DNA from: Scenedesmus sp. PABB004 | Lineage: Eukaryota | Assembly: GCA_014905635.1 (NCBI GenBank) | Contig: JABVCE010000002.1 | Location: 1-64,000 of the forward strand | Direction of reading: 5' to 3' | DNA length: 64,000 nt | Shown: in pieces, positions 1 through 60,900 of the stretch | Position numbering within the stretch: position 1 is the first letter of the stretch | How the letters are laid out: the number at the start of each line of letters is the position of its first letter | Notes under the pieces: generated by a model | Database searches by the model: none | Told to the model about the DNA's origin: nothing | What the model saw: the letters and a program-made list of their open reading frames with translations, nothing else | Program-made: the position numbers and the translations under genes

Positions 1-383
1 CGGCCTTGGAGCCGACCGCGGCGGCGAGCGAGGCGTGCAGGCTGGTGGCGGCGTCGGCGATGGCGCTGGCGACGAGCTGCTGCGCGGCGATGGTGCGGTC
101 GCTGTCGTAGGAGGTCATGCCGCCCGTGGAGCGCCGCGCGTCGTCACCGCCGCCGGGCTTGTCAGCGGCGGCCAGGCCTGCGTGCGGGGCGGCGCGGCAC
201 GGCGAGGGGCGGGGTCAGCGGGTGCGCCTGGCGCGAGCGGCGGCGCTGCTACAGCGCAGGCGCACGCGGCAGTCGCGCTGAGGCGCGGCGCGGCAGGCCA
301 GCAGCGCGCCGGCGCTCACCTGCCAGGCTGGTGACGAGCAGCAGCGCGACCGCGGCGGAGGCGGCGAGCGTGGGGCGCGCCAT
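1..383 (-). CDS. Secreted RRLL-repeat precursor, copy A (3' part outside window)
   Basis: Exon 1 383-320, GT-AG intron 319-178, exon 2 from 177; same structure as the complete copies. Confidence 0.8.
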
Positions 384-1672
384 GCCGGTGGTGACAGTGG
401 GGCGTGAGGCCAAGCGCGATCTCTATGCGAGCTTGAGCGATCGAGGTCGAGGCGAGTGAGCAGGAGGCTGCTGGTGAGCGAGGGTGCTTGAGCTGTCTGC
501 TTGAGAGAGCTGAGTGGTGAGGCTGGCGCCCATCGCGCCCTATATGCTCCGGGAGGCCACCGAGCGGTCGCGGTAAGGGCGGGGGCAACAGGCGGGTCAC
601 CGCCGGCCCAAGCGGACCAAGGCGGTCAGCGGCGGGTCCGCTCGGACCTGATGGTCCTTGGAGAGTGCTCAAAAGAAGTTCCAGGGACCGCCGTCGCTCC
701 GCCCGCAGGCGTGAGACGGGCGCGCATCACGGGCCCGCATCACGGGCGTGCATCACGGACGGCCGGCGGGCCCAGCGGCGGCGGCCGCCGCGGCGGCAGC
801 GGGCAGCGCTGCCGCTGCGGCCGCGCGCCGCGCCGCGCGCCGCGCGGTCGGGCGGGCGGAACCGCGCTGCTGCTGCTCGGCTGGTCAGCCGGCGGCGTTA
901 CAGCGGCGACAGAACTCGGGCCGGCGCGGCGGCTGGGCGGGGCGGTGGGCGGGACGCTGCCAGCGGGGGCGGCACCACCAGTTGGCTGCAGCTGCTGCGG
1001 GGTCGAGCGGTGCTGCAACAGGCACCCGCCGCGCGGCTGGCGCGCTGGGGAACTGCGGCGGGCTGCGGCCGGCGCGCGCGCAACGTGGGCCAAGAGGCAG
1101 TTACCAGTTGGCGATCGCAGCCACCCAACCCTTGCCGCGACGCGGCTTCGCAAACCGACTGAATTCACCCCCACCCGCCGACAGCGTCACACAACTCCGC
1201 AGCAAGCAACGGCCAGCAAGCACATGGCTATGGTGCGGCCAATCCCAACGGTGCGCGGCCTGCCCCGCCCCAGCGCCATGCGCGCGCCTCTTTTGCAGAG
1301 GCTGCGGAGCGCATGCGCGCACAACAGGGGGGTCAGCACAGCGCGCGTTGTGCACAAGCGGCGGCAGGCAAGCCGAGTCAACAGCTGCACAACCCATCCT
1401 GCGCGGCACGCGGCGCCGCGCCTGCCCGTCACCGCCACGATGGCGGCGGTGAGCGGGTGCGCACCACCACACAAGTCATCCTGCTGTACACAAGCATGTG
1501 TGGGGCTCGCGACCATGTGCGCTCTACAGCCGCACCCCGGCGCGGCGGCCGAGGGGGCAAAATCAGTCAGCCAGCCAGTCAGTCAGTCAAAAAGCCAACT
1601 CAGCGCGCGCGCCCGCGCCTGCAGTCCCGGCGCGGCGCGTGCGCGTGCAATGAAAGCCCCACCGCTCTGCAC

Positions 1673-2755
1673 CTAGGGCTTGCGAGCCTGCAGGCCAGCG
1701 AGCGCAAAGTCGCTGGGCAGCGCGCTCTCCTGGGAGGCCAGGCGCGCGTACAGGAGGCCGCTGCTGGCGGCCGCCTTGGCGCTGCCGGCCTGGCCCGCCG
1801 CCTGGGGCTGCTGCCGCTCAAGGTCGGCGCTGACGGCTTGCCGGATGGCGTCCTGGGCGGCGGTCAGGCCCAGCGACGCGCGGTCGCTGCGCTCCAGCGC
1901 CGACTGCTGCAGCAGGCGCCGCGCGCCGCCGTCGACCGCCTCGGCGGCCAGGCGCGGAGCGCTCCAGCGCAGGGCGTCGACGCGCTCGGGGCTGTCGCGC
2001 CATGCGCTGTCCGGGCGCTCCGGGTCCTGCAGCAGGCGCCGCGCGCCGCCGTCGCGCACGGCCGAGTCAAACTCGCGCTGGCCCGTGCTCTCGGCGGTGG
2101 ACAGCAGCGCCGCCTTGGTGCCGACGGCCGTGGCGAGCGAGGCGTGCAGGCTGGCGGCGGCCTTGGCGATGGCGTCGCTGGTGTGCTGCAGCGCGTTGAT
2201 GGTGCGGTCGCCGGCGTCATACCAGGTGGTGCCGCCCACGGAGCGCCGCGCGCTGCCGCCGTTGCCGGGCTTGCCGCCGCCGCCGCCCTGAAGGAGGCGG
2301 CGGGCGCCACCACTGCTGCGGGCGGCCGCGTCGAGCTCGCCCAGGCCGGCGCCCTCGTCCGTTGCCAGCAGCGCGGCCTTGGAGCCGACCGCGGCGGCGA
2401 GCGAGGCGTGCAGGCTGGTGGCGGCGTCGGCGATGGCGCTGGCGACGAGCTGCTGCGCGGCGATGGTGCGGTCGCTGTCGTAGGAGGTCATGCCGCCCGT
2501 GGAGCGCCGCGCGTCGTCACCGCCGCCGGGCTTGTCAGCGGCGGCCAGGCCTGCGTGCGGGGCGGCGCGGCACGGCGAGCGGGGGGTCAGCGGGTGCGCC
2601 TGGCGCGAGCGGCGGCGCTGCTACAGCGCAGGCGCACGCGGCAGTCGCGCTGAGGCGCGGCGCGGCAGGCCAGCAGCGCGCCGGCGCTCACCTGCCAGGC
2701 TGGTGACGAGCAGCAGCGCGACCGCGGCGGAGGCGGCGAGCGTGGGGCGCGCCAT
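1673..2755 (-). CDS. Secreted 313-aa precursor with internal repeats and three GGARRLLQ motifs, copy B
   Basis: Exon 1 2755-2692 encodes MARPTLAASAAVALLLVTSLA (signal-peptide-like). Intron 2691-2551 has GTGAG, a CTGAC branch and GCAG. Exon 2 (2550-1673) continues in frame into the 272-aa ORF. Confidence 0.85.
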
Positions 2756-2910
2756 GCCGGTGGTGAGCAGTGGGCGTGAGGCCAAGCGCGATCTCTATGC
2801 GAGCTTGAGCGATCGAGGTCGAGGCGAGTGAGCAGGAGGCTGCTGGTGAGCGAGGGTGCTTGAGCTGTCTGCTTGAGAGAGCTGAGTGGTGAGGCTGGCG
2901 CCCATCGCGC

Positions 2911-2919
2911 CCTATATGC
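2911..2919 (-). promoter_or_regulatory. TATA-like element of the precursor gene (in every copy)
   Basis: Minus strand GCATATAGG about 160 nt upstream of the ATG, a rare AT patch in GC-rich DNA. Confidence 0.45.
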
Positions 2920-4050
2920 TCCGGGGGAGGCCACCGAGCGGTCGCGGTAAGGGCGGGGGCAACAGGCGGGTCACCGCCGGCCCAAGCGGACCAAGGCGGT
3001 CAGCGGCGGTCCGCTCGGACCTGATGGTCCTTGGAGAGTGCTCAAAGAAGTTCCAGGGACCGCCGTCGCTCCGCCCGCAGGCGTGAGACGGGCGCGCATC
3101 ACGGGCCCGCATCACGGGCGTGCATCACGGACGGCCGGCGGGCCCAGCGGCGGCGGCCGCCGCGGCGGCAGCGGGCAGCGCTGCCGCTGCGGCCGGCGCC
3201 GCGCCGCGCGCGCGCGCGCGCGCGGTCGGGCGGGCGGAACCGCGCTGCTGCTGCTCGGCTGGTCAGCCGGCGGCGTTACAGCGGCGACAGAACTCGGGCC
3301 CGGCGCGGCGGCTGGGCGGGGGCGGTGGGCGGGACGCTGCCAGCGGGGCGGCACCACCAGTTGGCTGCAGCTGCTGCGGGGTCGAGCGGTGCTGCAACAG
3401 GCACCGCCGCGCGGCTGGCGCGCTGGGGAACTGCGGCGGGCTGCGGCCGGCGCGCGCGCAACGTGGGCCAAGAGGCAGTTACCAGTTGGCGATCGCAGCC
3501 ACCCAACCCTTGCCGCGACGCGGCTTCGCAAACCGACTGAATTCACCCCCACCCGCCGACAGCGTCACACAACTCCGCAGCAAGCAACGGCCAGCAAGCA
3601 CATGGCTATGGTGCTGCCAATCCCAACGGTGCGCGGCCTGCCCCGCCCCAGCGCCATGCGCGCGCCTCTTTTGCAGAGGCTGCGGAGCGCATGCGCGCAC
3701 AACAGGGGGGTCAGCACAGCGCGCGTTGTGCACAAGCGGCGGCAGGCAAGCCGAGTCAACAGCTGCACAACCCATCCTGCGCGGCACGCGGCGCCGCGCC
3801 TGCCCGTCACCGCCACGATGGCGGCGGTGAGCGGGTGCGCACCACCACACAAGTCATCCTGCTGTACACAAGCATGTGTGGGGCTCGCGACCATGTGCGC
3901 TCTACAGCCGCACCCCGGCGCGGCGGCCGAGGGGGCAAAATCAGTCAGCCAGCCAGTCAGTCAGTCAAAAAGCCAACTCAGCGCGCGCGCCCGCGCCTGC
4001 AGTCCCGGCGCGGCGCGTGCGCGTGCAATGAAAGCCCCACCGCTCTGCAC

Positions 4051-5133
4051 CTAGGGCTTGCGAGCCTGCAGGCCAGCGAGCGCAAAGTCGCTGGGCAGCG
4101 CGCTCTCCTGGGAGGCCAGGCGCGCGTACAGGAGGCCGCTGCTGGCGGCCGCCTTGGCGCTGCCGGCCTGGCCCGCCGCCTGGGGCTGCTGCCGCTCAAG
4201 GTCGGCGCTGACGGCTTGCCGGATGGCGTCCTGGGCGGCGGTCAGGCCCAGCGACGCGCGGTCGCTGCGCTCCAGCGCCGACTGCTGCAGCAGGCGCCGC
4301 GCGCCGCCGTCGACCGCCTCGGCGGCCAGGCGCGGAGCGCTCCAGCGCAGGGCGTCGACGCGCTCGGGGCTGTCGCGCCATGCGCTGTCCGGGCGCTCCG
4401 GGTCCTGCAGCAGGCGCCGCGCGCCGCCGTCGCGCACGGCCGAGTCAAACTCGCGCTGGCCCGTGCTCTCGGCGGTGGACAGCAGCGCCGCCTTGGTGCC
4501 GACGGCCGTGGCGAGCGAGGCGTGCAGGCTGGCGGCGGCCTTGGCGATGGCGTCGCTGGTGTGCTGCAGCGCGTTGATGGTGCGGTCGCCGGCGTCATAC
4601 CAGGTGGTGCCGCCCACGGAGCGCCGCGCGCTGCCGCCGTTGCCGGGCTTGCCGCCGCCGCCGCCCTGAAGGAGGCGGCGGGCGCCACCACTGCTGCGGG
4701 CGGCCGCGTCGAGCTCGCCCAGGCCGGCGCCCTCGTCCGTTGCCAGCAGCGCGGCCTTGGAGCCGACCGCGGCGGCGAGCGAGGCGTGCAGGCTGGTGGC
4801 GGCGTCGGCGATGGCGCTGGCGACGAGCTGCTGCGCGGCGATGGTGCGGTCGCTGTCGTAGGAGGTCATGCCGCCCGTGGAGCGCCGCGCGTCGTCACCG
4901 CCGCCGGGCTTGTCAGCGGCGGCCAGGCCTGCGTGCGGGGCGGCGCGGCACGGCGAGCGGGGGGTCAGCGGGTGCGCCTGGCGCGAGCGGCGGCGCTGCT
5001 ACAGCGCAGGCGCACGCGGCAGTCGCGCTGAGGCGCGGCGCGGCAGGCCAGCAGCGCGCCGGCGCTCACCTGCCAGGCTGGTGACGAGCAGCAGCGCGAC
5101 CGCGGCGGAGGCGGCGAGCGTGGGGCGCGCCAT
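4051..5133 (-). CDS. Secreted RRLL-repeat precursor, copy C
   Basis: Same two-exon structure and translation as copy B. Confidence 0.85.
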
Positions 5134-6422
5134 GCCGGTGGTGAGCAGTGGGCGTGAGGCCAAGCGCGATCTCTATGCGAGCTTGAGCGATCGAGGTCGA
5201 GGCGAGTGAGCAGGAGGCTGCTGGTGAGCGAGGGTGCTTGAGCTGTCTGCTTGAGAGAGCTGAGTGGTGAGGCTGGCGCCCATCGCGCCCTATATGCTCC
5301 GGGGGAGGCCACCGAGCGGGCGCGGTAAGGGCGGGGGCAACAGGCGGGTCACCGCCGGCCCAAGCGGACCAAGGCGGTCAGCGGCGGTCCGCTCGGACCT
5401 GATGGTCCTTGGAGAGTGCTCAAAGAAGTTCCAGGGACCGCCGTCGCTCCGCCCGCAGGCGTGAGACGGGCGCGCATCACGGGCCCGCATCACGGGCGTG
5501 CATCACGGACGGCCGGCGGGCCCAGCGGCGGCGGCCGCCGCGGCGGCAGCGGGCAGCGCTGCCGCTGCGGCCGCGCGCCGCGCCGCGCGCCGCGCGGTCG
5601 GGCGGGCGGAACCGCGCTGCTGCTGCTCGGCTGGTCAGCCGGCGGCGTTACAGCGGCGACAGAACTCGGGCCCGGCGCGGCGGCTGGGCGGGGGCGGTGG
5701 GCGGGACGCTGCCAGCGGGGCGGCACCACCAGTTGGCTGCAGCTGCTGCGGGGTCGAGCGGTGCTGCAACAGGCACCGCCGCGCGGCTGGCGCGCTGGGG
5801 AACTGCGGCGGGCTGCGGCCGGCGCGCGCGCAACGTGGGCCAAGAGGCAGTTACCAGTTGGCGATCGCAGCCACCCAACCCTTGCCGCGACGCGGCTTCG
5901 CAAACCGACTGAATTCACCCCCACCCGCCGACAGCGTCACACAACTCCGCAGCAAGCAACGGCCAGCAAGCACATGGCTATGGTGCTGCCAATCCCAACG
6001 GTGCGCGGCCTGCCCCGCCCCAGCGCCATGCGCGCGCCTCTTTTGCAGAGGCTGCGGAGCGCATGCGCGCACAACAGGGGGGTCAGCACAGCGCGCGTTG
6101 TGCACAAGCGGCGGCAGGCAAGCCGAGTCAACAGCTGCACAACCCATCCTGCGCGGCACGCGGCGCCGCGCCTGCCCGTCACCGCCACGATGGCGGCGGT
6201 GAGCGGGTGCGCACCACCACACAAGTCATCCTGCTGTACACAAGCATGTGTGGGGCTCGCGACCATGTGCGCTCTACAGCCGCACCCCGGCGCGGCGGCC
6301 GAGGGGGCAAAATCAGTCAGCCAGCCAGTCAGTCAGTCAAAAAGCCAACTCAGCGCGCGCGCCCGCGCCTGCAGTCCCGGCGCGGCGCGTGCGCGTGCAA
6401 TGAAAGCCCCACCGCTCTGCAC

Positions 6423-7505
6423 CTAGGGCTTGCGAGCCTGCAGGCCAGCGAGCGCAAAGTCGCTGGGCAGCGCGCTCTCCTGGGAGGCCAGGCGCGCGTA
6501 CAGGAGGCCGCTGCTGGCGGCCGCCTTGGCGCTGCCGGCCTGGCCCGCCGCCTGGGGCTGCTGCCGCTCAAGGTCGGCGCTGACGGCTTGCCGGATGGCG
6601 TCCTGGGCGGCGGTCAGGCCCAGCGACGCGCGGTCGCTGCGCTCCAGCGCCGACTGCTGCAGCAGGCGCCGCGCGCCGCCGTCGACCGCCTCGGCGGCCA
6701 GGCGCGGAGCGCTCCAGCGCAGGGCGTCGACGCGCTCGGGGCTGTCGCGCCATGCGCTGTCCGGGCGCTCCGGGTCCTGCAGCAGGCGCCGCGCGCCGCC
6801 GTCGCGCACGGCCGAGTCAAACTCGCGCTGGCCCGTGCTCTCGGCGGTGGACAGCAGCGCCGCCTTGGTGCCGACGGCCGTGGCGAGCGAGGCGTGCAGG
6901 CTGGCGGCGGCCTTGGCGATGGCGTCGCTGGTGTGCTGCAGCGCGTTGATGGTGCGGTCGCCGGCGTCATACCAGGTGGTGCCGCCCACGGAGCGCCGCG
7001 CGCTGCCGCCGTTGCCGGGCTTGCCGCCGCCGCCGCCCTGAAGGAGGCGGCGGGCGCCACCACTGCTGCGGGCGGCCGCGTCGAGCTCGCCCAGGCCGGC
7101 GCCCTCGTCCGTTGCCAGCAGCGCGGCCTTGGAGCCGACCGCGGCGGCGAGCGAGGCGTGCAGGCTGGTGGCGGCGTCGGCGATGGCGCTGGCGACGAGC
7201 TGCTGCGCGGCGATGGTGCGGTCGCTGTCGTAGGAGGTCATGCCGCCCGTGGAGCGCCGCGCGTCGTCACCGCCGCCGGGCTTGTCAGCGGCGGCCAGGC
7301 CTGCGTGCGGGGCGGCGCGGCACGGCGAGCGGGGGGTCAGCGGGTGCGCCTGGCGCGAGCGGCGGCGCTGCTACAGCGCAGGCGCACGCGGCAGTCGCGC
7401 TGAGGCGCGGCGCGGCAGGCCAGCAGCGCGCCGGCGCTCACCTGCCAGGCTGGTGACGAGCAGCAGCGCGACCGCGGCGGAGGCGGCGAGCGTGGGGCGC
7501 GCCAT
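6423..7505 (-). CDS. Secreted RRLL-repeat precursor, copy D
   Basis: Same two-exon structure and translation as copy B. Confidence 0.85.
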
Positions 7506-8419
7506 GCCGGTGGTGAGCAGTGGGCGTGAGGCCAAGCGCGATCTCTATGCGAGCTTGAGCGATCGAGGTCGAGGCGAGTGAGCAGGAGGCTGCTGGTGAG
7601 CGAGGGTGCTTGAGCTGTCTGCTTGAGAGAGCTGAGTGGTGAGGCTGGCGCCCATCGCGCCCTATATGCTCCGGGGGAGGCCACCGAGCGGGCGCGGTAA
7701 GGGCGGGGGCAACAGGCGGGTCACCGCCGGCCCAAGCGGACCAAGGCGGTCAGCGGCGGTCCGCTCGGACCTGATGGTCCTTGGAGAGTGCTCAAAGAAG
7801 TTCCAGGGACCGCCGTCGCTCCGCCCGCAGGCGTGAGACGGGCGCACATCACGGGCCCGCATCACGGGCGTGCATCACGGACGGCCGGCGGGCCCAGCGG
7901 CGGCGGCCGCCGCGGCGGCAGCGGGCAGCGCTGCCGCTGCGGCCGCGCGCCGCGCGCCGCGCCGCGCGGTCGGGCGGGCGGGACCGCGCTGCTGCTGCTC
8001 GGCTGGTCAGCCGGCGGCGTTGCAGCGGCGACAGAACTCGGGCCCGGCACGGCGGCTGGGCGGGGGCGGTGGGCGGGACGCTGCCAGTGGGGCGGCACCA
8101 CCAGTTGGCTGCAGCTGCTGCGGGGTCGAGCGGTGCTGCAACAGGCACCGCCGCGCGGCTGGCGCGCTGGGGAACTGCGGCGACATGGCGGGCTGCGGCC
8201 GGCGCGCGCGCAACGTGGGCCAAGAGGCAGTTACCAGTTGGCGATCACAGCCACCCCTTGCCCAAATGCGACTTCAGTCCCCGATGGCGGGGGCTGCAGC
8301 GCCCCCGGGCGCCGGCGGCGGCGGTGCCTGTCGCAGCACCTCCCGCACGCCGCTGGGCCCCGCAGCAGCCGGCTGCTGCGGCACCAGCGTCCCCCCGCCC
8401 CCAGCCCCAGCTGCCGCTG

Positions 8420-14500: not shown

Positions 14501-17500
14501 GCGCGCGCCGCGCCCGCGCCCCCCGCGTCCTCACACCCCCTCGCCCCCTCCCTCCCCCCTCTCCCTGCCCCGCCCTGCGCCACGCGCTGCGCCAGAGGTT
14601 GGCGGCGTGTCCTACCGGGGCGTGCGCGCCGCGACGAGCGTGGTGATGAGCGGGTGCTACGAGGACGACACGGACAGCGGCAGGGCGGAGATCGTCACCT
14701 ACACCGGTGCGGGGCGGCGTGGGGGGGGGTGTGGGGGCGGGTGCGGAGGCGGTGGGCGGGTTGTGTGTGCGGGTGGGTGGCGTGGGCGGGTTGTGTGTGC
14801 AGGTGGGGTGGCGTGGGCGGGCGGATGGTGTGCAGGTGGTGGGTGGTGCGCGTGTGTTCGGGAGGCAGGCGAGGCGCGGCGGCGCGCGCCCGCGCCCACG
14901 CCGCGCGCGCGCCCGCTCACGCGCCGCGCCCCGCGCGTCAGGCGAGGGCGGCAACGACCTGCTGGGCCGCAAGCTGCAGGTGGCGGGGCAGACGCTGAGG
15001 CGCGGCAACCGCGCGCTCATGGCCAACGTCGCGCTCGGCCTGCCCGTGCGCGTGCTGCGCCGCAACGACGACCCCGCCGCGCCCACCGCGTCGGTGCTCT
15101 TCTACGATGGACTCTACAGCGTGGTGCGGCCGCTGCGGGGCTGTTGTGGGCGTGTGTGGTGTGTGTGGGTGGTTGGTGTGGGTGTGGGTGGAGGGGGTGG
15201 AGGAGGTGCGGCGTGCGAGCGTGCCGGCGGGCCCTGCTCGACGCGCCCCACCGCCGCCGCGCCGCCGCGCGCCGCACGTACCAGGTGTCGTGGGTGAAGG
15301 CCCTGGGGCGCCAGGGCAAGGAGGTCTACGTCTTTGGCCTCAAGCGCCGCCCGGGGCAGGACCCGCCGCTCAGCAAGCCGGTGCGGGGGGCGCCGCGCCG
15401 CGCGCGTGTGCGGCCCACGCTCCGCGCCCCGGCACACCCCCCCCCCCCCCCCCACACCCACCCACACGCACACACACACACACACACCCGCGCCCCGCCC
15501 TGCGCCGCCCTGCGCCGCCTGCACCCCTGTGCCGGCAGATCCCTCACTTCAAGGCCGTGGGCACCGCCAAGAAGGGCGTGAGCGTGCAGCTGCGCGAGCA
15601 CATCGTGTGCAGGGACGTCTCCAAGGGCGCCGAGGCGACGCCCGTGGTCGCGGTCAACGAGGTCAGACGCGGCGGGGGGTTTGGGGAGAGGGGAGCCCTC
15701 TGCGGCGCCCGCGCGCGCCCGCGCGGGCAGCCGCTCGCGGCGCCCACGCGGCCGCTACGCCGCCGCCGCCGCCGCGCAGGTGGACCGGGAGCTGCCGCCG
15801 GGGCTGTCGCTGCCGGACGACGCCGAGTGGGTGGTGGACGACAAGGACAGCAAGGCGCGGTGAGCCCGGCGCGCCGCCCGGCGCTCGGCCCCGTCCCTTC
15901 CCTCTCCCTGGCTCAGCGCCGTGCCGCTTCGGCTCACGCGCCGCGCTGCGCCGCTGCCCGCGGCAGGCCGTTCAGCGCGAGCGGCCAGGTCTTCCGCTAC
16001 ATCACCTCCAACGAGTACGGCGCCGGCGTGGCGCCGCCGCGGCCGCCGGTGGTGCTGGACGAGGGCAGCCGCGAGGCCGCGGCCGCGATGGCGGCCAGCG
16101 TGGCGGCGGTCAAGGCCGAGGCCGCCGCGGCGGCCGCACGCGCCGCGGCCGACGCCGCGCGCGACGCGGCGCCCCGCGGCGCGGCGGCGCGCGACGCCGG
16201 CGCGGCGGCGGGCCGCGCGGAGGCCGCGGCGGACGCCGCCGACGCGGCGGCGGTGGAGGCTGCGACGCGCGACGCGGCGCGCGCCGAGGCGGCCGCCACG
16301 CGCGCAGCGCAGGCCGCGGCGCGGGCCGAGGCGGCGCGCGGCGACGCCGAGGCCGCCGCCGCGCGCGCGGGCGCCGGCGACGCCGCCAGCGCGGCGGCGG
16401 CGCGCCGCGCGCGCGCGCCGCGCGCGGCCGCGGTCCCGGGCGCCGCCGCCGGCGCCGCGCCGCCGTGCCCCGACAACGGCGCGCGCTGCGCGGGCGCGTG
16501 GGTCAGCCGCCACGTCGCGATCCGGCGCCCGGGCGAGTCGCCGCACGGCCTCCTCGCACGCATCAACCACGGGCGCCTGCCGTACGAGCCGCGGCTGCAG
16601 GCGTCGCGCAGCGAGCGCGGGCCGCTGCTGCCGGTGGTGGACCGCGTGTACCCGGTGCTGACCGAGTGCGGCGACTGGACCGGCTGCGACGACGCCGACT
16701 GCAAGCAGCGCCAGGCGCGGGCGGCGCTGGGGCGGGGCTGGCGGGCGGGGGGGGGGGGGGCGGCGGGGCGGCTGGCTGGCGGGCGGGGCCGCGGGCGGCC
16801 GCGCCGCCGGCGCGCAGCGCGCCGAGCACCTCCCCCGCCCGCGCCGCCCCGCCCCGCCTGCGCCCCCGCCCTGCAGGCGCCGCGCGGGCTGCGCTACAAG
16901 CTGGAGGTGTTCAAGACGGCCGACAAGGGCTGGGGCGTGCGCAGCTGGGACGGCATCAAGGGCGGCACGCTCGTGTGCATCATGTTTGGCACACACGTGC
17001 GGTGAGTGGGCTCGTGCCGCGGCGCCAGGGGGCCGGGGGGGCCGGCTAGAGCACGGAGCACGCGTTTGGCAGTCGTCGGGTCGTGGGCCGGAGCGGCCGG
17101 CCGCCTGTGGGGCAAGGCCGGCGCGGCGGCCGACGCGGCGGCCGCGCACGCCGCCCCGCCCCGCGCCCCGCAGCGCGCGCGACGTCGGCGACGGGCGGCT
17201 GCTGAGTGACAGCGCCTATTTTTTTGACGTCGCGCCGCGCCCCGACGGCCTCAGCGACCCGGACGCCGCGCCGCCGCCAAAGTGCGCGCGCGCCGCGCGG
17301 TGTGCCGCGCGCGCGCTGTGCGATGCGCCCGCCGCGCGCGCGCGGACGCCCGCTCCTCCGCCGCCGCCGCCCGCGCCGTCAACCTCCACCCGCTCCAACC
17401 GCCGCGCACCAGGTACGTGCTGTGCGCGCGCGACCAGGGCGGCGTGGCGCGGTTCATGAACCACAGCTGCGACCCAAACCTCTACGTCCAGCCCCTCTGC

Positions 17501-17799
17501 GCGGGGCACACCGACACCGACAAGCTCAGCATCGGGCTCTTTGCCGCGCGCCACATCCCGGCGTTCACAGAGCTCTCGTGCGCCGTGCCGCGGCGCGCGC
17601 GCCGCGCTGCCAGCTGCGCGACGGCCGCGTCGCGGCGGCTTGCACGCGCCGCGTCGCGGGCTGACCCCGCCGCCGCCGCCGGCGCCGGTGCAGGTACGAC
17701 TACGGCGCAAGCTACATCGAGAGCAACCTCGGCGGCGTGTGCCTCTGCGGCGCCGACTCGTGCCGCTACAAGCCCCGCGCGCGGCGGGGCGGCACGTGA
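11579..17799 (+). CDS. SUVH-family histone H3K9 methyltransferase (N-terminal Tudor-like, SRA/YDG, pre-SET, SET, post-SET)
   Basis: SRA: GHVPGV, SVVMSGCYEDDTD, YTGEGGNDLLG, GNRAL, PVRVLR, FYDGLY. SET: LEVFKTADKGWGVRSWD, ARFMNHSCDPN, ELSYDYG. Post-SET CLCGADSC. TGA 17797-17799. About 14 introns. Confidence 0.9.
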
Positions 17800-18079
17800 G
17801 CAGGGAGCTCGATTGGGTGCGGCGTTGTTCTCCGTTACAAGGCCATTGCATTTGGGGCGCGCGTGTGCATAGGGCGCGCTGAGCGAAGCGCGCGTGCAGG
17901 CCGGCGAGCTGGTCGGTCGGGTGACACGTTGGTCGTCGGTCCCCTGCCTTCCTTCCCAGTCCCCAGAGCTGCCAGCACGCACACGCGACTGCGCCAGCTG
18001 GCGACTGCCCCAACGGCCGCGGCGGCGGCGGCGCGAGAGGCAGCAACCAGGCTCGCAACGCGCAGCGCAGCCGGCGATG

Positions 18080-19554
18080 CCGGGCCTGCACACAGAGCCT
18101 AGTGCTCGAACGGGCCGCGGGCGCTCTGAGCGGTCCGAGCCCATCTGAGCTCTACAGCTCTGCGTGCAGGCTCGGGGCTGCTCGGCCACCACGCGCGCAC
18201 TGCACCCAGCGCCTGCCGCCCGCCACATGCCAACCTGCGCGCATCGCCCGCATCGTCCGCGTCCACGCGCTGGCGCGCCGCCTCGTTCTGCCTGGCGGCG
18301 GCCGCGCGGTCGGCGGCGCCGACGCCCGCCGGCGGCGCGCCTGAGCCGTGCGTGGGGCTGCCGGGGCGAGGCGTCGTAGCCGTCGCCCTTGAAGGGTGCT
18401 TCAGCGCGAGGGCCACGACGCCTGGACCGGCAGCCTCGAGGCCGGCCGAGCACCGCGCGCGCCGGTGTCGGGCGCCACCAGGTCCGACTTGGTGGCGCCG
18501 GACACCGGCGCGGCTCCTCGGTGCGGCGCGCGTTGAAAGACAAAAGCCACCGACGCCAGGAGTCTGGCGGCTTTTATGGCGACGGTGGCTCTGCCTTTGT
18601 CTTCCACGCGCGCCGCGCCAGCCTCGTCGTCCACCTCCGGCAGCTGCGCAGCTGCGCAGCTGCGCAGCTGCGCAGCTGCGCATGCGCGGGAGGGTGGGGC
18701 GGCGGGGCGGGACGGCGCGCGCGGGCAGGCGCGGCAGCGGGCCCGTCGCAGCGCGGCGCGCTGGGCGCCGCCAGCCGGGCGGGGCGATGTGGGGCGAGCG
18801 CCGCCTCGCTTCAGCAGGCGCTTCAGCTCGAGGCGGCGCTCGCCCTGTCGTGTTGGCAGCGGGCGACGCGAAATGCTGGCCACGCGCGCGCGCGCCGGCG
18901 CAGCGCGCAGCCGCGCCCGACGGCGGGGCCGCGCCGGTGGCCGGCGCCGCGCACCTCGTGGTTGAGGTCAAAGATCGTGGCGCCACGATTTTTGACCTGA
19001 ACCACAAGGCGCGGCCGCTTGGGCTGCCCGGCGCGCCCGGCGCGGTGTCGTTGCGCGAGACCCGCATGTGGGAGGCGGCAACGACACCGCGCCGGGCGCG
19101 CCGGGCGAGCAGTGCGCTGCTCGCTGATCTGCATGTCTTGGTGCTGGCACGTCGCGTGCCGACACCAGGCATGCCGGTGAGCGAGCAGCGGTTCTCGCGC
19201 AAGGACCGCGCGCCGCGCTGCTGTGCTGCTGCCGCCGCTGCCGCGCTGCCGCTGCCGCGCCGCCGCCGCCGCCGCTGCGCCTCACCCTCGTCGGTGAGTG
19301 GCTTCACAGCCACGTGGCTTCACAGCGACGCGGTCGTCAAGCCGTTCACCGACGCGGGCGAGGCACGGCAGTGGGGGCGGCGGCGGCGGGCCGTCAGCAG
19401 CTGTGCGCGTGCACCTGCCGCCCCCCCCCCCCAAAGACGCCCCGGCGCAGCGCGACGCGCCCGAGAGTGGGATCGCAGCCGGCGCGGAGGGCGCACTGCG
19501 GCGCAGGCGCGTCGGCGGCGCAGGGCTCGCGCGTCGCGACCGGCGCCGTCGACG
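18080..19554. ncRNA. Candidate structured non-coding RNA: cluster of at least 9 long hairpins
   Basis: Inverted repeats checked base by base: 18080-18175, 18369-18423, 18458-18512, 18523-18616, 18792-18845, 18958-19005, 19026-19106, 19115-19190, 19279-19364, 19510-19554. The repeats are observed; transcription is inferred. Confidence 0.5.
18640..18680. repeat. Self-complementary octamer microsatellite (GCAGCTGC)x5
   Basis: gcagctgc repeated five times in tandem; each unit is a palindrome. Confidence 0.9.
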
Positions 19555-19868
19555 ACGGGCCGCGCCCACGCTCCGGACTTGAGAGTGCCCTGCCCGCTCC
19601 CGCACCGGCGGCGCCCGGCCCTCGCGCGCGATCGCCGGCCGCGCGGCGCGCGCACGTGCGTCGTCGCCGCCGCCGCGCCGCCAGCAGCGCAGCAGCGCGC
19701 GCTGGGCGAGGCCGGGAGGCGGACGCCTGCAAACAGGCGCGTGGCGAGGGCGGGGGGCTCGGATCGGCGCGCCGCCGGCGCCCGGCGCTGTTGCGCGCCG
19801 CCCCACCCTCGCCGCCGCCGCTCGCCGCGCGCCACAGCGGCTTGGCGCGCGCCGCACGTGTGGGCGCG

Positions 19869-22800
19869 ATGCCGCTGCAGGTCCTGGCCGAAAAGGTGCG
19901 CAGGCGCGCGGCTGGGTGCCGCCGCGCCGCGCCTGCGCGCGCCGCGCTCCGCGGTGCGGGGCAGGCCGATGCGCACGTGCTCGCGGCCGAGCTGGCGGCT
20001 GTCGCCGACGCGCTCGACGTGCCGCAGATGCGGCAGACGCTGGGCGTCGAGTCTGCCACCTTCCAGCCGATCAGCCTCGAGCGCTACCGGCAGGCGGCGG
20101 GCGACCTGGAGCGCTTCGCCGACTGGCTCCGCGGCGCGCAGGCGGCGCTGGAGCGCCTCGAGGCCGACCTCGCGGGTGCGCACGTGCTGCGCAGCGCGCG
20201 TGGGGCGGCCGGGCCGGCCGCCGCACGCCGCGCCGCCAGCCCGCGCGCCGCCGCCCGCGCTGCAGCCCCCGCCCGCCCGCCCGCCCGCCCGCCCGCGCCG
20301 CGCCAGGCTTCTGCGCGTCCGCCGCCGCGGCGACGGCGTCGTGCCCGCTGCCCGCGCTCTATTCGGAGCGCGCCGGCACGGGCGAGCTGCGCGCGCTGCC
20401 GCGCGCGTCGCCGCCGCCGGCGCATGCGCACCTCTTCGCGCTGCCCGCCGCGCACGCCGGCCCCCCGGACGACGCCAGCGCGGTCAGGGGGCTGCCCGCG
20501 TCGCTGCACGGCAAGCTGCGGGGCGAGGCGCTCGCGCACATGGAGCAGTGGCTGAGCGCGTGCGCCGACGCCAGGGTGCGTCGCCCCGGCACGCGGGGCG
20601 GGCGGCGGCGCCCAGGTCGTTGCGCGCGCGGGTGCGCGCCCGCCGCTCACCGCGGACTGAGCGTCTGGCCCCTGCCGCCTGCGGCTGCCACGCGCCGCCA
20701 GGCGCGCCTCGCGGCGCTGGACTCGCTGCGCCTGCGCGTCGACGCGCAGCGCCGCAAGGTCGAGCGCCGCAGCCGCCACTTCCTCGCGCTGCACGCGCAG
20801 CACACGGCGGCGCAGCGCGGGCGCGGCCACGGCGGCGCCGCGCCGCCCGCCGACCGCGTGCTGGCGCTCGCCAGCGGCAGCGGCAGCGCCCCGCCGGGCG
20901 CCGCGGCGCAGGAGATCGCGCTGCTCGGGCTGATGCCCGAGCCCGGTGCGCGCGGCGCAGCCAACGGCGGTGCGCGCGGCGCGGCGCGGCGCGGCGCGGC
21001 GTGGGCAGGGCCTGCCCGCCCGCGCCGGTGGCGGCCGGCGTGCACTGAGCGCTCCCACCGCCGCCGCGCCGCGCTGCCAGGCGGCGACGCGAGCGGCGAC
21101 GAGTCGCCCGCCAGCGGCGACGAGGAGAGATGGGCGGCGGCCGTGTACAGGCGGCGCGGCGAGCGCGGGCTCCTGGCGGCGCACGAGATGGTGGAGCACA
21201 AGCTGCAGCGTGAGCGGCGGGGGGCGCGCACGGCGACGGCGCCCCTGCGCTGCGCGGGGACGGCCGCACGGCAGCGCGCGCGGCCTGATCGTGCACTCGC
21301 GGCCTGATCGTGCACTGCTGCCGTCCGCGTGTCTGCGCGTGCTGCCGCAGCCCTGCTGACGGAGTTCCAGGAGGCTGAGCTGGCGCTGTCGACCCTGCTC
21401 GGCTGGCTCGTGACGCAGGTGGGTGCAGGCCCCCAGCACCCGCGCCGCGCCCGCCGCCGCAGCGCGCCCGCCGCCGCAGCGCGCCCGCCGCGCGAGCCGC
21501 CACGCGCGCGCGCCCATGCGAGCGACCGCACCGCGCGCGCCGCGCAGGCGGCGCGGCTGCGGGCGCTCCTGGTGGCCATGCTGCACACGGCGGCCGCCGG
21601 CGTGGAGGGCTGGGCAGCGCCGCAGGGCCTGCTCGAGCCGGTGCCGCCGGGCTTCGCGCCGGGCCAGTCTGCGGGCGCCGGCGCCGCCGCGCAGGCTGCG
21701 TCGCTGCCGAGCGGGGCGGCGCCGGCGCCAGAGGGCGCGGCGGCGGAGGTGCCCGGGCCGCCTGGTGCTGCGCGCTCGTCCCAGGCCCCTGCGGCGGGCC
21801 CGGGGGCGGCCGGCCTGGAGGGCCGGCGCCCTGCAGGCTCCGGTGCGTCCACGCTTGAGGCGGTGGCGGCGGCAGAGGGCTGCCCCGTCGCCGCGGCCGC
21901 GGCCGCGGCCACGGCCGCCACCGCCGCGGCCACGCGGCGCGCGGTGCTGGGAGGCCTGCAGCGCCACAGCAGCAGCCCTGCCGAGCAGGGCGGCCAACAC
22001 GAGCTCAGCGCCCGGGGCGGCGCCGTGGCGGAGGGGCGCGAGGAGGGGCCGGGCGGCAGCGGCAGGCCCGGGCTGCCGGCGCCGCCCGCGGCCGCCGCGC
22101 TGCCCGGCGACGGCGCGGTGCCCGGCAGCCCCATTGCTGTCGGCGACGACGCCGCCAGCGTGCGCCGCTCCAGCAACGCCACGCAGCGGTCGTCCTACCT
22201 CTCGGCCATCTCCAGCTGGGAGATCGGCGGCGAGTCGCCCCCGCACAGCGCCGACGCCACGCCGCACGGCAGCGGCAGCTTCCTGCGCGAGGGCGCCGCG
22301 GCGGCGGCCGGCTCGCCGCGACCGCCGCGCCCCGCCCCGGCCGGCGCGCAGCCGCGGGGGGCGCCGGGCGGCGAGCGCCCGGCGGCGCCGCATGACATGA
22401 CCTACCTCAGCCGTGACCAGGCGCTGCTTGCTGGCATGGGGGACGCGGGCGGCGCGGCGCTGCAGCAGGAGCAGGCGGCGCTGCTCGCGCGCGCGGCCGC
22501 GCTCGAGTCGGAGGCCGCCACGCACGCCGCGGCGGCGGCGGAGGCCGAGCGGCTGCGCGCCGACGCGGCGGCGCGCGCGGCGGCCATCGAGCGCCAGCTG
22601 CGCGCCGAGCTGCCCGACAGGCGGGCGGCGCTGCTGCGCCAGCAGGAGGTGCGGCCGCGGGCTGCGGCAGGGCACCGTCGCTGCCGCTGCCGCCGCCGCC
22701 ACCCGCGCGCGAACCCCTGCACCCCTGCCGCCGCGCGCGCAGGCCGCGTCGGCCGAGCTGGCGCGCCTGCAGTCGGAGCGCGCGGCCGTGCTGGAGGCCG

Positions 22801-30158: not shown

Positions 30159-30547
30159 CGGCGGCGGCGCGGGGGGCCTCGCGTGACTGGGGCGGCGGCG
30201 GGCGCGCGCTGCGCAGCATGGGTCGTGACTCGATTGCTTGGTGCGCGCGCCGACGCCGCGGCAACCGTTTTGCCCGCCGCCGCCAACGGGCGGCGGGGTT
30301 GCCGCGGCGGGCGCGGCGGTGATTTTGGGTGCGCCTGAACACACTGCTGACCGCCGCCCGCACCACGTCGGCGCGTGACGCCCGCGGTTTGGCGCCGAGC
30401 CGCTCGCCTGGCGCGTCGAGCTCGCCCGACAGTCGGCAGTGCTCGCCACCGTCAGCCCGCGCAGGCACGCCAGCGCCCACACACCCAGCGCGAGAGCCCG
30501 CCGCCACCGCCGCGCGCCGCCGCTGCGCGCCGGACAGCGCAGCGGCC

Positions 30548-52299: not shown

Positions 52300-55200
52300 C
52301 TACGCGGCGCCGCTGGTCTCCGGCGGCGGCGCGGGCAGCACGCCGCCGTCGCTCGGGTGCGCGTGCGGGGGCGCGTCCCCCTGCTGCTGCTCCGCGCCGG
52401 GCTGCTGCTCCGCGGGCGCCTGCGCCGGCGGCCCGCACTGCTCCTGCTGCTGCGCCGGCGGCGCCGGGGGCGCCTGCTCCAGCGGCGGCTGGTCCGGCTG
52501 CGCCGCGGGCTGCTCCGGCGCCGCCGCGCCAGCTGCCTGCTGCTGCTCACTGGCAGGGGCAGGTGGCGGCTCGGCAAACCCCGCCACCGCCGCCTGCCCC
52601 GGGCCGGGCTGCTCCTGCTGCGGCTGCTGCGACTGCGGCGGCTGCGGCTGCAGCAGCCGCTGCTCCGGCCCGCCGCCCAGCGCGGCGCCCGGCGCCGGCC
52701 CCTGCTGCGGCTGCTGCTGCGCGAGGCCGGCCGCCCCGCCCCCGCCGACGAGCGCCGACACGCCGACCATCTGCATGCTCGCCAGCGTCGCGCCCTGCTC
52801 CTGCGCCGACAGCCGCTGCGGCGGCGGCAGGCCCGCGGCCGCGGCCGCGCCCGCGCCTGCCGTGGCTGCTGACACCGCGATGCGCGCCGCGGCCGCAGAC
52901 GCGGCCCGCGACGCCTCGAGCACGGCGGGGTCGGTCGCGGCCGCCAGGCCCGGGTTGGGCACGGCCGCGTCCCTGCCGCCAGCCGCCGTCGGCTCTGCTG
53001 CGGCCACTGCAGCCTCGGCCGCGGCAGGCGCCGCCGCGTCGGCCGGCGGCGCCGCGGGCTCCGCCGCGCCAGCCTCGGCCGCGGCGGGCTCGGCCGCGGC
53101 GGGCTCTGCCGCGCCAGCCTCGGCCGCGGCGGGCTCGGCCGCGGCGGGCTCGGCCGCGGCGGGCTCCGCCGCGCCAGCCTCGGCCGCGGCGGGCTCGGCC
53201 GCGGCGGGCTCCGCCGCGCCAGCCTCGACCGCGGCGGGCTCGGCCGGCGCTGGGCCGTGCGGGGCGGGCACAGCCGGCGCTGCGCCGTCCGCGGCGGGCA
53301 CAGCCGGCGCTGCACCGTCTGCTGCCGCGCCGCCGTCCGCTGCGGCCGCGCCGCCGTCCTCCGCGACAGCCGCGCCGCCGTCCGCCGCGACAGCCGCGCC
53401 GCCGTCCGCGGTCGCGCTCGCGGCCGCCGCGGCGCCGCCCTCGCCGTCGGCGGCGCGGCCGCCGCGGGCAGCGGCTTGACGAGCAGCTGCGTGCCCGGGA
53501 AGATGAGCATGCGCAGCTCCTTCTTCACGCCCGCCTGCTGCTCCTCGGGCATGTGCGCAAAGCCAAAGCCGTGCACCCACGTGTTGAGCGCCGCGTCGGC
53601 GGCGGGCAGCGCGAGCGCGCGCACGCCGAGCTGCACCAGCGTCGCCTCGATCGCGCGCACGAGCACGCGCGCGTGGCCCAGGCGCCGCGCGTCGGGGCGC
53701 GTCGCGACGAGCGGCAGCTCCGCGAGCTGCTCCCCAAACACGCGCACGACCGCCGCCGCGACGGCGCGGCCGTTGAAGCGCAGCAGCACGGTCAGCATGT
53801 TGCTGAAGTCCCACTCGCGGTACGCCTGCGTGACATCAGGCGGCGCGCGGGCGGCGCGTGGGCGGCGCGCGGGCGGCGCGCGGCGGCGCGCGGGCGGCGG
53901 GAAACGGGCGGCACGCGGCGCTCGGGCGGCGCGCGGGCGCACCCTGGCCTGGATGATGAGTGGCAGCAGGTCTGTGTTGTTGGTCGCGTCCATGATGGGG
54001 TCAAAGCTGCCCTGCAGGATCGACATGCACGCGCGCATCGACATCTCAACCTGCGCCGGCGGCGGGGCGCCCGCGGCGGCGGGGACAGCGTCAGCGGGGG
54101 CGGCGCCGGCGGCGGGGACGGCGCCGGCGGCGGCCGCGGGGGAGGCGGCGGCGGACGGGCGCGCGGCGGCGCGCGGCGCGCGGCGCGCGGCGCGCGGCGC
54201 GCCGCTCTCACCCGGCCGGCGCTGTGCTTGCCGCGCAGCACGTGCCAGCTGTGCTCGCCGTGCGGGCCGATCGACATCTCGCCCGCGGCCACGAGCGCGC
54301 CGAGCTGCGCCTTGATCGACGTGCACGCGGCACCGCAGAACCAGTCGCCCTCGGGCAGCTGCGGCGCGGCGCAGGGGTCGGCGCGGCGCGGCGCGGAGGT
54401 CGGCGCGGCGCGCCGCGGCAGCACCGCGCCGGCGGCGGCACCACGTCAGCGGGGCCTCACTCACCGCCTTGAGGTCTGCCGCGCCGGCGTCGCGGAGGCA
54501 GCCGACGTGGAACTCGCGCTCGCAGGTGTCGCAGATCATGATCGTGCGGTCGCCAAACGCGCCACGCAGGAAGTCAGGCTCGTGGCAGAGCACGCACCCC
54601 GCGCCGAGGCCGTCGGTGTCGTGCACCACCTCGGGCGGCCTGCCGCGCGGGCGGGGGCGGCGCGGGCGCGTGGTGAGCGGCGCGCGGGGACGCGCCGCGC
54701 GCCGTCAGGGAGCGAGGCGGCGCGGCGCGGGGCGGAGCGAACAACGCACGTGCGCGGCGAGGCGGCGCGCGCGCGGCGGGCGGCGGCGCGGCGGCGGTGC
54801 ACCCACCCGCTGAACTCCTCCACGCCCTCGTCGTCGTCGTAGTCGCCAAACAGCGCCTTGCGGCTGGCCGCGCGCCGCGCGTAGTCGACGCCCTGGCGGT
54901 GCGAGAGAGGAGGCGGGAAGGGAGGGTGTCAGGCTGAGCCGGGCGCGCGGGGTCCGCCGGCAGGCGGGCGCAAGGTGGCCGCCGCCAGGGGCCGCAAGAG
55001 GCTTTGAGCCGCACCTTGCGCGCCACGAGCGGCGCGACGCCGCCGCCGCCGTCGCCAACGGGCAGGCGCTCCGCGAGGCGGCGCAGGCTGGTGCCGTCTG
55101 CTGTGAAGATGAAATCGTAGGGCGCCCGCCGCGCGCCGCGCCCGCGTGCGCCTCAAACTGGCTGCAGCTCACGACCTGGACAGAGGGAGAAGGGCGCGCG

Positions 55201-59667: not shown

Positions 59668-60900
59668 ATGCGCGCCGCCGCGCCGCCCGGGGCGGCGCTC
59701 CCCGGCGCCGCCCGGGCGCCGGGCGCTCGGAGCGCGGGAGCGGCGCGGGTGCTGCCGCGCCTGCGCCGCGGCGGCGCCGCGGCCGCGGGCGAAAAGCTCG
59801 CGCGCGAGCTGCTGGACGTGGTCACCGCGGGGCCCAAGATGCGCAAGTGGTACGGCCAGCAGTCGTCCCTGCCGCGCGACGGCGGCGAGCCGCCGGAGCA
59901 GCAGCAGCAGCCGCAGGAGCAGCAGGAGCCGCCGGAGGACGGCGGCGCGCGCGACATTGTGCTCGTCACCGACGCCGACTCACCCACGGGCGAGCTGGTG
60001 GTGCTGCAGCTCATACTGCTTGGGTGCGCAGCTCGCGCGCGCGCGGGCGGCGGCGCGGCGCGGGGGCGGCGCGCCGGCGCGGCGGCCGACCGCGCCGCGC
60101 CGCGCGCAGGGCGCGCATCCGCATCCTCGTGCGCGACACCGCCGCGGCGAAGCAGGGCTACGGGCCGTATGTGGAAGCCGTGTCGGTGGACCTCGGCAGC
60201 CCGCAGGGCGCGGCGCGCGCGCTGCGCGGCGTGCGCGCGGTCGTCGCGCTCGGGCGCCTCGGCGCGCTGCTGCCCGCGGCCGAGGCGGCCGGCGTGGAGC
60301 GCGTCGTGCTGCTGTCCACCGCGGGTGCGGCGCGGCGGCGGCGGCGGCGGCGGCGGCGACTGGACGGCCGGCAGCGCGCAGCGGCGCGCCCGCGCAGCAG
60401 GCGGGCGCGCCGCTCGCCGCAGCCGCCCGCCGCCGACCCGCGCGCCCCGCCGGCCCGCGCCGCGCCGGCCCGCGCCGACCCGCGCAGGCATGCCGCAGCC
60501 GGGCGGCCTCGCGGCGCTGTTCCAGGACGCCGCGGACGCGGGGCTGAAGGACCCCGCGCGCGAGGCGGCCTGCCTGCGCAGCGCCATCCCGCACGTCGTC
60601 GTCAAGGCCGGGCCCATCCGGGACGTCCCTGGCGGCGCGTCGAGCATCGCCGTCGCGCCCGCGCCGCCCGCCGGCGCCGGCGGCGCGCCCGGCGGCGCCG
60701 CGGGCGGCGGCGGCGGCGGCATCACGCGCGAGGACCTCGCCTCCGCCGTGGTCGCGGCCGCGACGGCGCTGCCGGGGCTGGACGGGCGGCGCGGCGCGGG
60801 GCTGGTGTTCAGCGTGTCCGAGGCGGGCCCGGGCGCGCCGCCGGCCTCGTACGACGCGCTGCTGGAGGGGCTGCTGGCCGGCGAGCAGGCGCGCGCGTGA
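59668..60900 (+). CDS. Plastid NAD(P)-binding Rossmann-fold protein (atypical SDR-like, 3 exons)
   Basis: GPKMRKWYG, IVLVTDADSPTGELVVLQLIL, IRILVRD, GVERVVLLS, GITREDLA; transit-like N-terminus. Confidence 0.8.
   Translation: MRAAAPPGAALPGAARAPGARSAGAARVLPRLRRGGAAAAGEKLARELLDVVTAGPKMRKWYGQQSSLPRDGGEPPEQQQQPQEQQEPPEDGGARDIVLVTDADSPTGELVVLQLILLGCAARARAGGGAARGRRAGAAADRAAPRAGRASASSCATPPRRSRATGRMWKPCRWTSAARRARRARCAACARSSRSGASARCCPRPRRPAWSASCCCPPRVRRGGGGGGGGDWTAGSAQRRARAAGGRAARRSRPPPTRAPRRPAPRRPAPTRAGMPQPGGLAALFQDAADAGLKDPAREAACLRSAIPHVVVKAGPIRDVPGGASSIAVAPAPPAGAGGAPGGAAGGGGGGITREDLASAVVAAATALPGLDGRRGAGLVFSVSEAGPGAPPASYDALLEGLLAGEQARA

Follow-up and report, generated by a model that had tools for sequence, protein, structure and literature searches.

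A short non-coding stretch of contig JABVCE010000002.1 (GenBank assembly GCA_014905635.1), of which positions 1 to 64,000 were analysed here and are referred to as the window, raises the question of how ten different hairpins come to lie back to back between two genes, and whether they act in RNA or are a property of the DNA. The array occupies about 1.3 kb (18078-19398) downstream of a gene assigned to the SUVH-type H3K9 methyltransferases and consists of near-perfect, unbranched hairpins of 26-64 pairs each. The original prediction, made from the nucleotide sequence alone, had seen in it a microRNA (miRNA) or small interfering RNA (siRNA) cluster or a structured 3′ extension that could feed back on the adjacent silencing enzyme. 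In this work we show that the hairpins exist, that they are unique in the window, that they lie in non-coding sequence and that they originated as palindromes in DNA, and we tentatively propose that the array is transcribed and provides substrates for a Dicer-like enzyme.

The inverted-repeat arms were re-derived and each hairpin was folded as RNA against 200 dinucleotide shuffles. The hairpins (H1 to H10) and two related features are listed below with their window coordinates, the folded interval and the resulting z.

18078-18177: H1, 39 pairs, 3-nt loop (folded 18076-18179, z -4.70)
18360-18431: H2, 28 pairs, 4-nt loop (folded 18360-18432, z -6.26)
18455-18514: H3, palindrome with 27-nt arms and 1 nt between them (folded 18452-18518, z -7.71)
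18520-18619: H4, 42 pairs, nested palindromes (folded 18516-18623, z -7.47)
18630-18698: H5, built on a palindromic tandem repeat, (GCAGCTGC) x5.4 (folded 18628-18700, z -5.85)
18786-18849: H6, perfect 17-nt arms 18792-18808/18829-18845 with 20 nt between them (folded 18786-18851, z -5.80)
18944-19018: H7, true palindrome, arms overlapping at the centre, relatively A/T-rich (63% GC) (folded 18944-19019, z -9.01)
19023-19110: H8, perfect 29-nt arms 19026-19054/19078-19106 (100%) (folded 19019-19113, z -10.08)
19115-19190: H9, 33 pairs, 3-nt loop (folded 19111-19194, z -7.47)
19245-19398: H10, 64 pairs, core 19279-19364 plus GCC/GGC-repeat outer arms (core folded 19275-19368, z -7.59)
18912-18948: partial third copy of the H3 arm, inverted relative to 18494-18530 and direct relative to 18458-18476
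19508-19557: non-significant stem-loop (folded 19505-19560, z -1.95, 6 of 200 shuffles as good)

Nine of the ten stems have 26-42 pairs and the stems are nearly bulge-free. The hairpin coordinates of the original prediction were all reproduced and its claim of strong stem-loops was borne out by the shuffles for ten hairpins; it had overlooked H5 and listed the last hairpin as shorter than it is, while its eleventh stem-loop (19510-19554) proved indistinguishable from chance.

Each of the ten hairpins (z from -4.70 to -10.08) folded better than all of its 200 shuffles, and all ten were retained when the whole 1451 nt were folded together, on either strand. Folding strength was then compared over the window by regressing the minimum free energy (MFE) of sliding 120-nt frames on their GC content (2130 frames). 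On the + strand, GC-corrected z fell below -3 in 9 of the 41 frames within 18060-19400 versus 0 of 2089 outside, and on the - strand in 5 of 41 versus 0 of 2089. The nine most extreme + strand frames all start within 18451-19261, and the mean + strand z was -1.39 in the array, while 16 further non-coding gaps ranged from -0.55 to +0.47. No part of the window folds more exceptionally than the array, beyond what GC bias accounts for and far more strongly than in those gaps; the outcome that the original prediction had named as refuting it, folding no stronger than in other intergenic DNA, did not occur.

Hairpins of this kind are also rare in the window at the level of DNA. A stringent ungapped inverted-repeat scan of the 64 kb returned six hairpins, four of them in 18458-19106, the remaining two being low-complexity repeats of 89-98% GC. 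Isolated weaker hairpins with 13-14-bp perfect stems were seen at 30254-30310 and 52550-52607 (z of the enclosing 131-nt folds -2.7 and -4.1); elsewhere in the window single hairpins occur, arrays do not.

No copies of the hairpins were found elsewhere in the 64 kb by blastn, the outside matches being confined to (GCC)n low complexity, and no target-site duplications were detected (the best flanking direct repeats were of 2-4 nt, offset by up to 3 nt, and one of the ten hairpins had none). The hairpins are therefore not high-copy miniature inverted-repeat transposable elements (MITEs) as far as the window is concerned, in line with the original prediction. Its further statement that they are not copies of one another stood in self-comparison with a single exception, the similarity between the H3 arm and 18912-18948 (83.8% over 37 nt inverted, 89.5% over 19 nt direct). 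No common motif was found among the loop sequences. Searches with Rfam covariance models gave eight matches (E up to 1), all to miRNA models and scoring 23-35.7 bits against gathering scores of 72-100; these are generic, miRNA-shaped, sub-threshold matches and the hairpins belong to no described family in Rfam. ARAGORN found no tRNA in the array region. Scans for promoters and terminators of bacterial type carry no meaning in this eukaryote.

The window has a G+C content of about 80% throughout and is densely coding, segments with strong third-position GC periodicity making up most of it. Codon periodicity on the + strand is lost at about 17750 and resumes at about 19800, and the array fills the largest gap in the window that lacks it (about 2.1 kb). 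The prediction of no credible exons after the SUVH gene is thereby upheld. The array as a coding region was ruled out on the same absence of codon periodicity. It is flanked on both sides by + strand genes, the gap being bounded by the stop codon of the SUVH gene and the ATG of the next gene, and the features around it are as follows.

17411-17799, + strand: last two coding exons of the SUVH gene (translation, Pfam, codon periodicity)
17411-17578, + strand: SET exon of the SUVH gene (translation; intron boundaries read from the sequence)
ending at the stop codon 17797-17799, + strand: post-SET exon of the SUVH gene (post-SET motif read from the sequence)
17835-17839, - strand: TGTAA, possible poly(A) signal of an antisense transcript through the array (motif count)
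19869-20180, + strand: start of the next gene, ATG at 19869 (translation; periodicity back at about 19800)

The Pfam matches on the + strand to SAD_SRA (14860-15159) and SET (17288-17527) confirm, at the level of domain content, the assignment of the upstream gene to the SUVH-type H3K9 methyltransferases. The downstream gene had no Pfam match over 19878-20237. Between the array and the start of that gene a run of 12 C followed by AAAGAC was noted (19424-19436). Other genes of the window, as judged from Pfam, encode an AP-1 mu adaptin, a UbiA prenyltransferase, a VWA/UIM protein and an IDM1-like PHD-GNAT protein. The last of these (PHD finger and GNAT/IDM1 C-terminal domain, E 1.3e-35; 53385-54704, - strand) and SUVH make two putative chromatin-regulator genes within 40 kb. 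A tRNA-Ser(GCT) of 93 nt was called at 60343-60435 on the - strand, in a stretch that has coding-type periodicity on both strands. Since the AP-1 mu exon is 95% identical to that of Scenedesmus sp. (84-89% to other named green algae), the source is a chlorophycean, Sphaeropleales-like alga, a placement that makes the presence of Dicer-like and Argonaute proteins plausible.

The hairpins carry the marks of their formation in DNA. Eight of the ten are palindromic to the centre, pairing down to a loop of 3-4 nt, and in H3, H5, H7 and H10 the arms overlap or lie 0-4 nt apart. The arms of H3 (18458-18484/18486-18512) are 93% complementary with 2 mismatches. The palindrome of H7 (18950-19013) is 88-89% complementary, its 48-nt core (18958-19005) having 2 mismatches, and the tandem repeat of H5 spans 18640-18682 with 100% matches. 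H8 has a 9-nt tandem duplication inside each arm (19026-19044 and 19088-19107). H10, with 75-nt arms that are 73% complementary, has a 16-nt tandem duplication in its core (19298-19330), the unit of which is itself palindromic. Across the hairpins the arm identity is graded from 100% to about 73%. Because of the hairpins palindromic to the centre, the mirrored and tandem duplications in the arms, the third copy of the H3 arm and the graded identity, it is well supported by the sequence that the hairpins arose from small local duplications of DNA, both inverted and direct, which recurred over time. Template switching would leave two arms that almost abut and that mirror each other's internal features; such closeness is seen in H3, H5, H7 and H10, and such mirroring in the 9-nt duplication of H8. 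Template switching during replication is reported to yield perfect hairpins in one step and to be a known source of new miRNA hairpins (PMC10710096).

The resulting structures would be suitable for processing as RNA. All ten hairpins, on either strand, are unbranched fold-backs of 66-154 nt that offer a 21-nt duplex with 0-3 unpaired positions, none of them asymmetric. Axtell and Meyers reportedly asked in 2018 for an unbranched fold-back of at most 300 nt with a 21-nt duplex containing up to 5 mismatches, of which up to 3 in asymmetric bulges. By analogy, the density and spacing of the hairpins resemble a polycistronic miRNA cluster.

The mismatches within the stems are not symmetric between the strands. 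When arms were aligned with each other, with no use of the predicted structure, G.T mismatches numbered 25 versus 13 A.C, and G.G 17 versus 6 C.C. Taken together, G.T and G.G (42) exceed A.C and C.C (19) with a binomial p of 0.004, a somewhat optimistic value as several measures of asymmetry were examined. Keto and amino bases at mismatches stood at 100:54, compared with 216:214 in the 430 nt of linkers between the hairpins. The asymmetry fits a tolerance of wobble-type mismatches in RNA of the + strand, on which both flanking genes lie; the predicted abundance of G-U mismatches on that strand holds in this weaker form.

The reading that we prefer, with reservation, would combine both levels. 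The ten independent hairpins would have been made in DNA by serial fold-back or template-switch inverted duplications. We infer that the array is transcribed, more probably from the + strand, the product being a prolonged SUVH 3′ untranslated region (UTR) or a non-coding RNA of its own, and each hairpin in the transcript would then be a substrate for a Dicer-like RNase III, whose cleavage would release 20-22-nt duplexes, miRNA-like or of the hairpin siRNA type. An array lying within the SUVH mRNA would, when diced, also sever and destabilise the message, as happens in Chlamydomonas to mRNAs whose 3′ UTR hairpins are cleaved by DCL3. We prefer the transcribed array because of the clustering of the hairpins and the mismatch asymmetry; our confidence in it is low. 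A more specific version, in which a ten-member polycistronic small-RNA precursor lies on a 3′ extension of the SUVH mRNA, was built by serial template switches, and by being diced both yields small RNAs and tunes the SUVH level, seems to us improbable, and its feedback on SUVH is conjecture.

Several observations weigh against a transcribed and processed array. The two strands fold equally well, the MFE of the whole region being -1066.5 kcal/mol on the + strand versus -1063.0 kcal/mol on the - strand, and the per-frame strand difference is that of the background (mean -1.83 versus -1.36, p 0.49). The terminal loops have 3-6 nt, and such minimal loops, together with pairing to the centre, are a mark of DNA palindromes, unlike the long apical loops preferred in animal miRNA processing. 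A search of sequencing runs found no RNA run containing the array. There is no excess of near-matches to array 20-mers elsewhere in the window (78, versus 63 for the reversed control and 62-263 for other segments), and no targets or source sequences for the array were detected within the window above controls. Of the original small-RNA reading, the 21-nt-duplex structure of all ten hairpins stands, whereas the sub-threshold Rfam scores and the equal folding of the strands do not speak for it; on the whole that interpretation is partly supported.

The distribution of TGTAA, a poly(A) signal of chlorophytes, does not help the + strand either: the sole copy near the array is the one on the - strand at 17835-17839. 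The motif occurs 8 times in the window versus 2.1 expected (none of 100 shuffles reached 8), and the other seven copies lie 61-789 nt downstream of coding segments of the same strand, a pattern which suggests that it may serve as poly(A) signal for some genes of the window, most genes having none. A non-coding RNA transcribed through the array from the - strand is possible. The window opens (1-8262) with a 2372-2378-bp unit repeated in tandem about 3.4 times; the copies are 98-100% identical over most of their length, each with a minus-strand coding segment (no Pfam match) and a minus-strand TGTAA about 789 nt downstream.

Further points against the transcribed array came from a relative that is about 96-97% identical, here called X1. 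Its contigs cover 17684-18141 and 19034-19237, and the second of these reaches about 19343 after the alignment was corrected for a mirror arm; a difference at 19334 was set aside, as that piece aligned on the opposite strand, namely to the mirror arm of the palindrome. A metagenome contig, X2, showed no differences over 19047-19243. X1 and X2 contain only 5% of the sampled words and are represented by short, low-depth contigs over 17684-18141 and 19034-19364 only; H2-H7 are spanned by no long contig piece, and the summed depth is lowest in 18138-18871. X1 already has H8-H10. Its divergence in 19034-19237, 7 of 204 positions (3.4%), equals the rate of the non-hairpin 3′ flank. Among the six differences listed there, 19095 G>T and 19172 T>G break stem pairs with no listed compensating change, and those at 19130 and 19175 change both sides of one mismatch without forming a pair on the + strand; the remaining two fall in a loop (19066) and a linker (19198).

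An assembly artefact was ruled out, independent contigs of X1 and X2 matching parts of the array. The (GCC)n/GCT-rich tract at the base of H10 (19238-19278) appears about 22 nt shorter in X1, and X2 contigs have small indels at 19242-19243; judging from these differences, the tract is a length-variable microsatellite. A scan of metagenomes with the SET exon gave 12 loci of 50-55% identity and 47-56% GC, none with an adjoining hairpin array; the downstream gene's first exon, used as query in the same way, retrieved no loci.

The strongest competitor is a neutral cluster of DNA palindromes, in which inverted duplications would have accumulated, with no function in RNA, in the largest gap of a compact genome, one that is not transcribed; we hold this to be a real possibility, although on balance doubtful. 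It would readily account for the eight hairpins that are palindromic to the centre, for the mirrored arm duplications of H8, the palindromic tandem repeat of H5 and the duplicated palindromic unit of H10, and for the third copy of the H3 arm 430 nt away. The range of arm identity, from 100% to about 73%, is what would be expected of births at different times followed by decay, and the flank-like divergence of the X1 hairpins with two uncompensated stem changes and the equal folding of both strands point the same way. One-step formation of perfect hairpins by template switching is moreover documented (PMC10710096). The extreme clustering, however, with 0 of 2089 frames elsewhere at z below -3, demands a locus-specific cause that is so far postulated: either hairpins are tolerated only there, or palindromes stall replication forks and seed more events, both of which are possible. 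A uniform neutral process does not explain the location of the array, because the array is extreme against the 2089 frames and the 16 gaps. The + strand excess of G/U-type mismatches, absent in the linkers, is unexpected under strand-symmetric decay, and the fair uniformity of the stems (26-42 pairs in nine of ten), nearly free of bulges, also counts against neutrality.

We consider it unlikely that the array is a cis-acting structural element, be it a terminator or insulator block at which the polymerase pauses or the nascent transcript is cut by an RNase III-type enzyme, or an element acting in DNA, with cruciforms at an origin or recombination hot spot. Such a role would suit its position, right in the interval separating two genes of the same strand where coding is otherwise dense, as would the equal stability of the hairpins on either strand and as DNA palindromes. 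Nine Chlamydomonas mRNAs, moreover, have DCL3-sensitive fold-backs from which small RNAs are not clearly produced (PMC4817775). Nothing similar is seen at the other tandem gene pairs of the window, though, and the loops share no motif. Least probable is a nest of fold-back or MITE-like elements from ten families, or a selfish palindromic repeat family, since although the palindromic units of 60-150 bp are of MITE size and short palindromic repeats have spread in the organelle genomes of Volvox, with copies in nuclear DNA (PMC2670323), the hairpins are mutually unrelated, have no copy elsewhere in the 64 kb, show 20-mer near-matches at the level of controls and are flanked by repeats that are just chance matches of 2-4 nt.

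The array may be set beside several known systems. Polycistronic miRNA clusters of animals and plants, e.g. mir-17~92, have conserved members with sizeable apical loops. Like the array, they pack several unrelated hairpins, each about 60-100 nt long and able to give one ~21-nt duplex, closely spaced into 1-2 kb; unlike them, the array has loops of 3-6 nt, no known homologues and Rfam matches below the gathering scores. Another system is that of the hairpins cut by DCL3 in the UTRs and introns of Chlamydomonas reinhardtii mRNAs, a precedent that the original prediction had rightly invoked: miRNA hairpins are reported in the UTRs of 13 mRNAs and siRNA precursors in 26, DCL3 cleaves such mRNAs directly, and where it cuts 3′ UTR hairpins small RNAs are produced and the level of the mRNA that carries them falls (Valli et al. 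2016, PMC4817775). That alga too is chlorophycean and its near-perfect non-coding stem-loops lie next to or within a protein-coding transcript, but there single hairpins per transcript are described together with sequenced small RNAs and dcl3 genetics (PMC4817775), whereas the array has ten back to back and is known from DNA alone.

The template-switch hairpins of Monttinen et al. (2023, PMC10710096) are likewise one-step perfect inverted repeats made from adjacent sequence and later gaining mismatches, and are proposed there as raw material for new miRNA genes; the preference stated in that paper is for a 35-bp stem and a loop of at least 10 nt. In that account they are isolated events inferred on phylogenies, while the array would hold ten such products in 1.3 kb. 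In Volvox carteri, green-algal non-coding DNA is similarly described as filled with hairpin-forming palindromes (Smith and Lee 2009, PMC2670323), which in that description form one class with many similar copies, unlike the hairpins of the array, which share no sequence. For a repeat family of the Volvox type the copies would be alike, and the sole similarity between hairpins is that of the H3 arm and 18912-18948. Among the papers listed by literature searches, none had a polycistronic hairpin cluster or nuclear palindrome array of green algae in its title or abstract.

Provided that transcription and dicing of the array occur, it would join the known chlorophyte hairpin small-RNA loci, among which its ten-fold back-to-back layout is unusual, and would represent an unusually dense locus of this kind next to a gene for chromatin silencing. 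In the gradation of arm identity (100% to about 73%) one would then see a small-RNA cluster built stepwise from local inverted duplications. Carried on the SUVH mRNA and diced there, the hairpins would couple RNA silencing to chromatin silencing in a compact feedback, and would let a miRNA cluster be observed in the course of its birth. If, on the other hand, the array is untranscribed, it would be a clear natural palindrome-generating hot spot in a compact genome of 80% GC, and would bear on template switching as a shaper of non-coding DNA.

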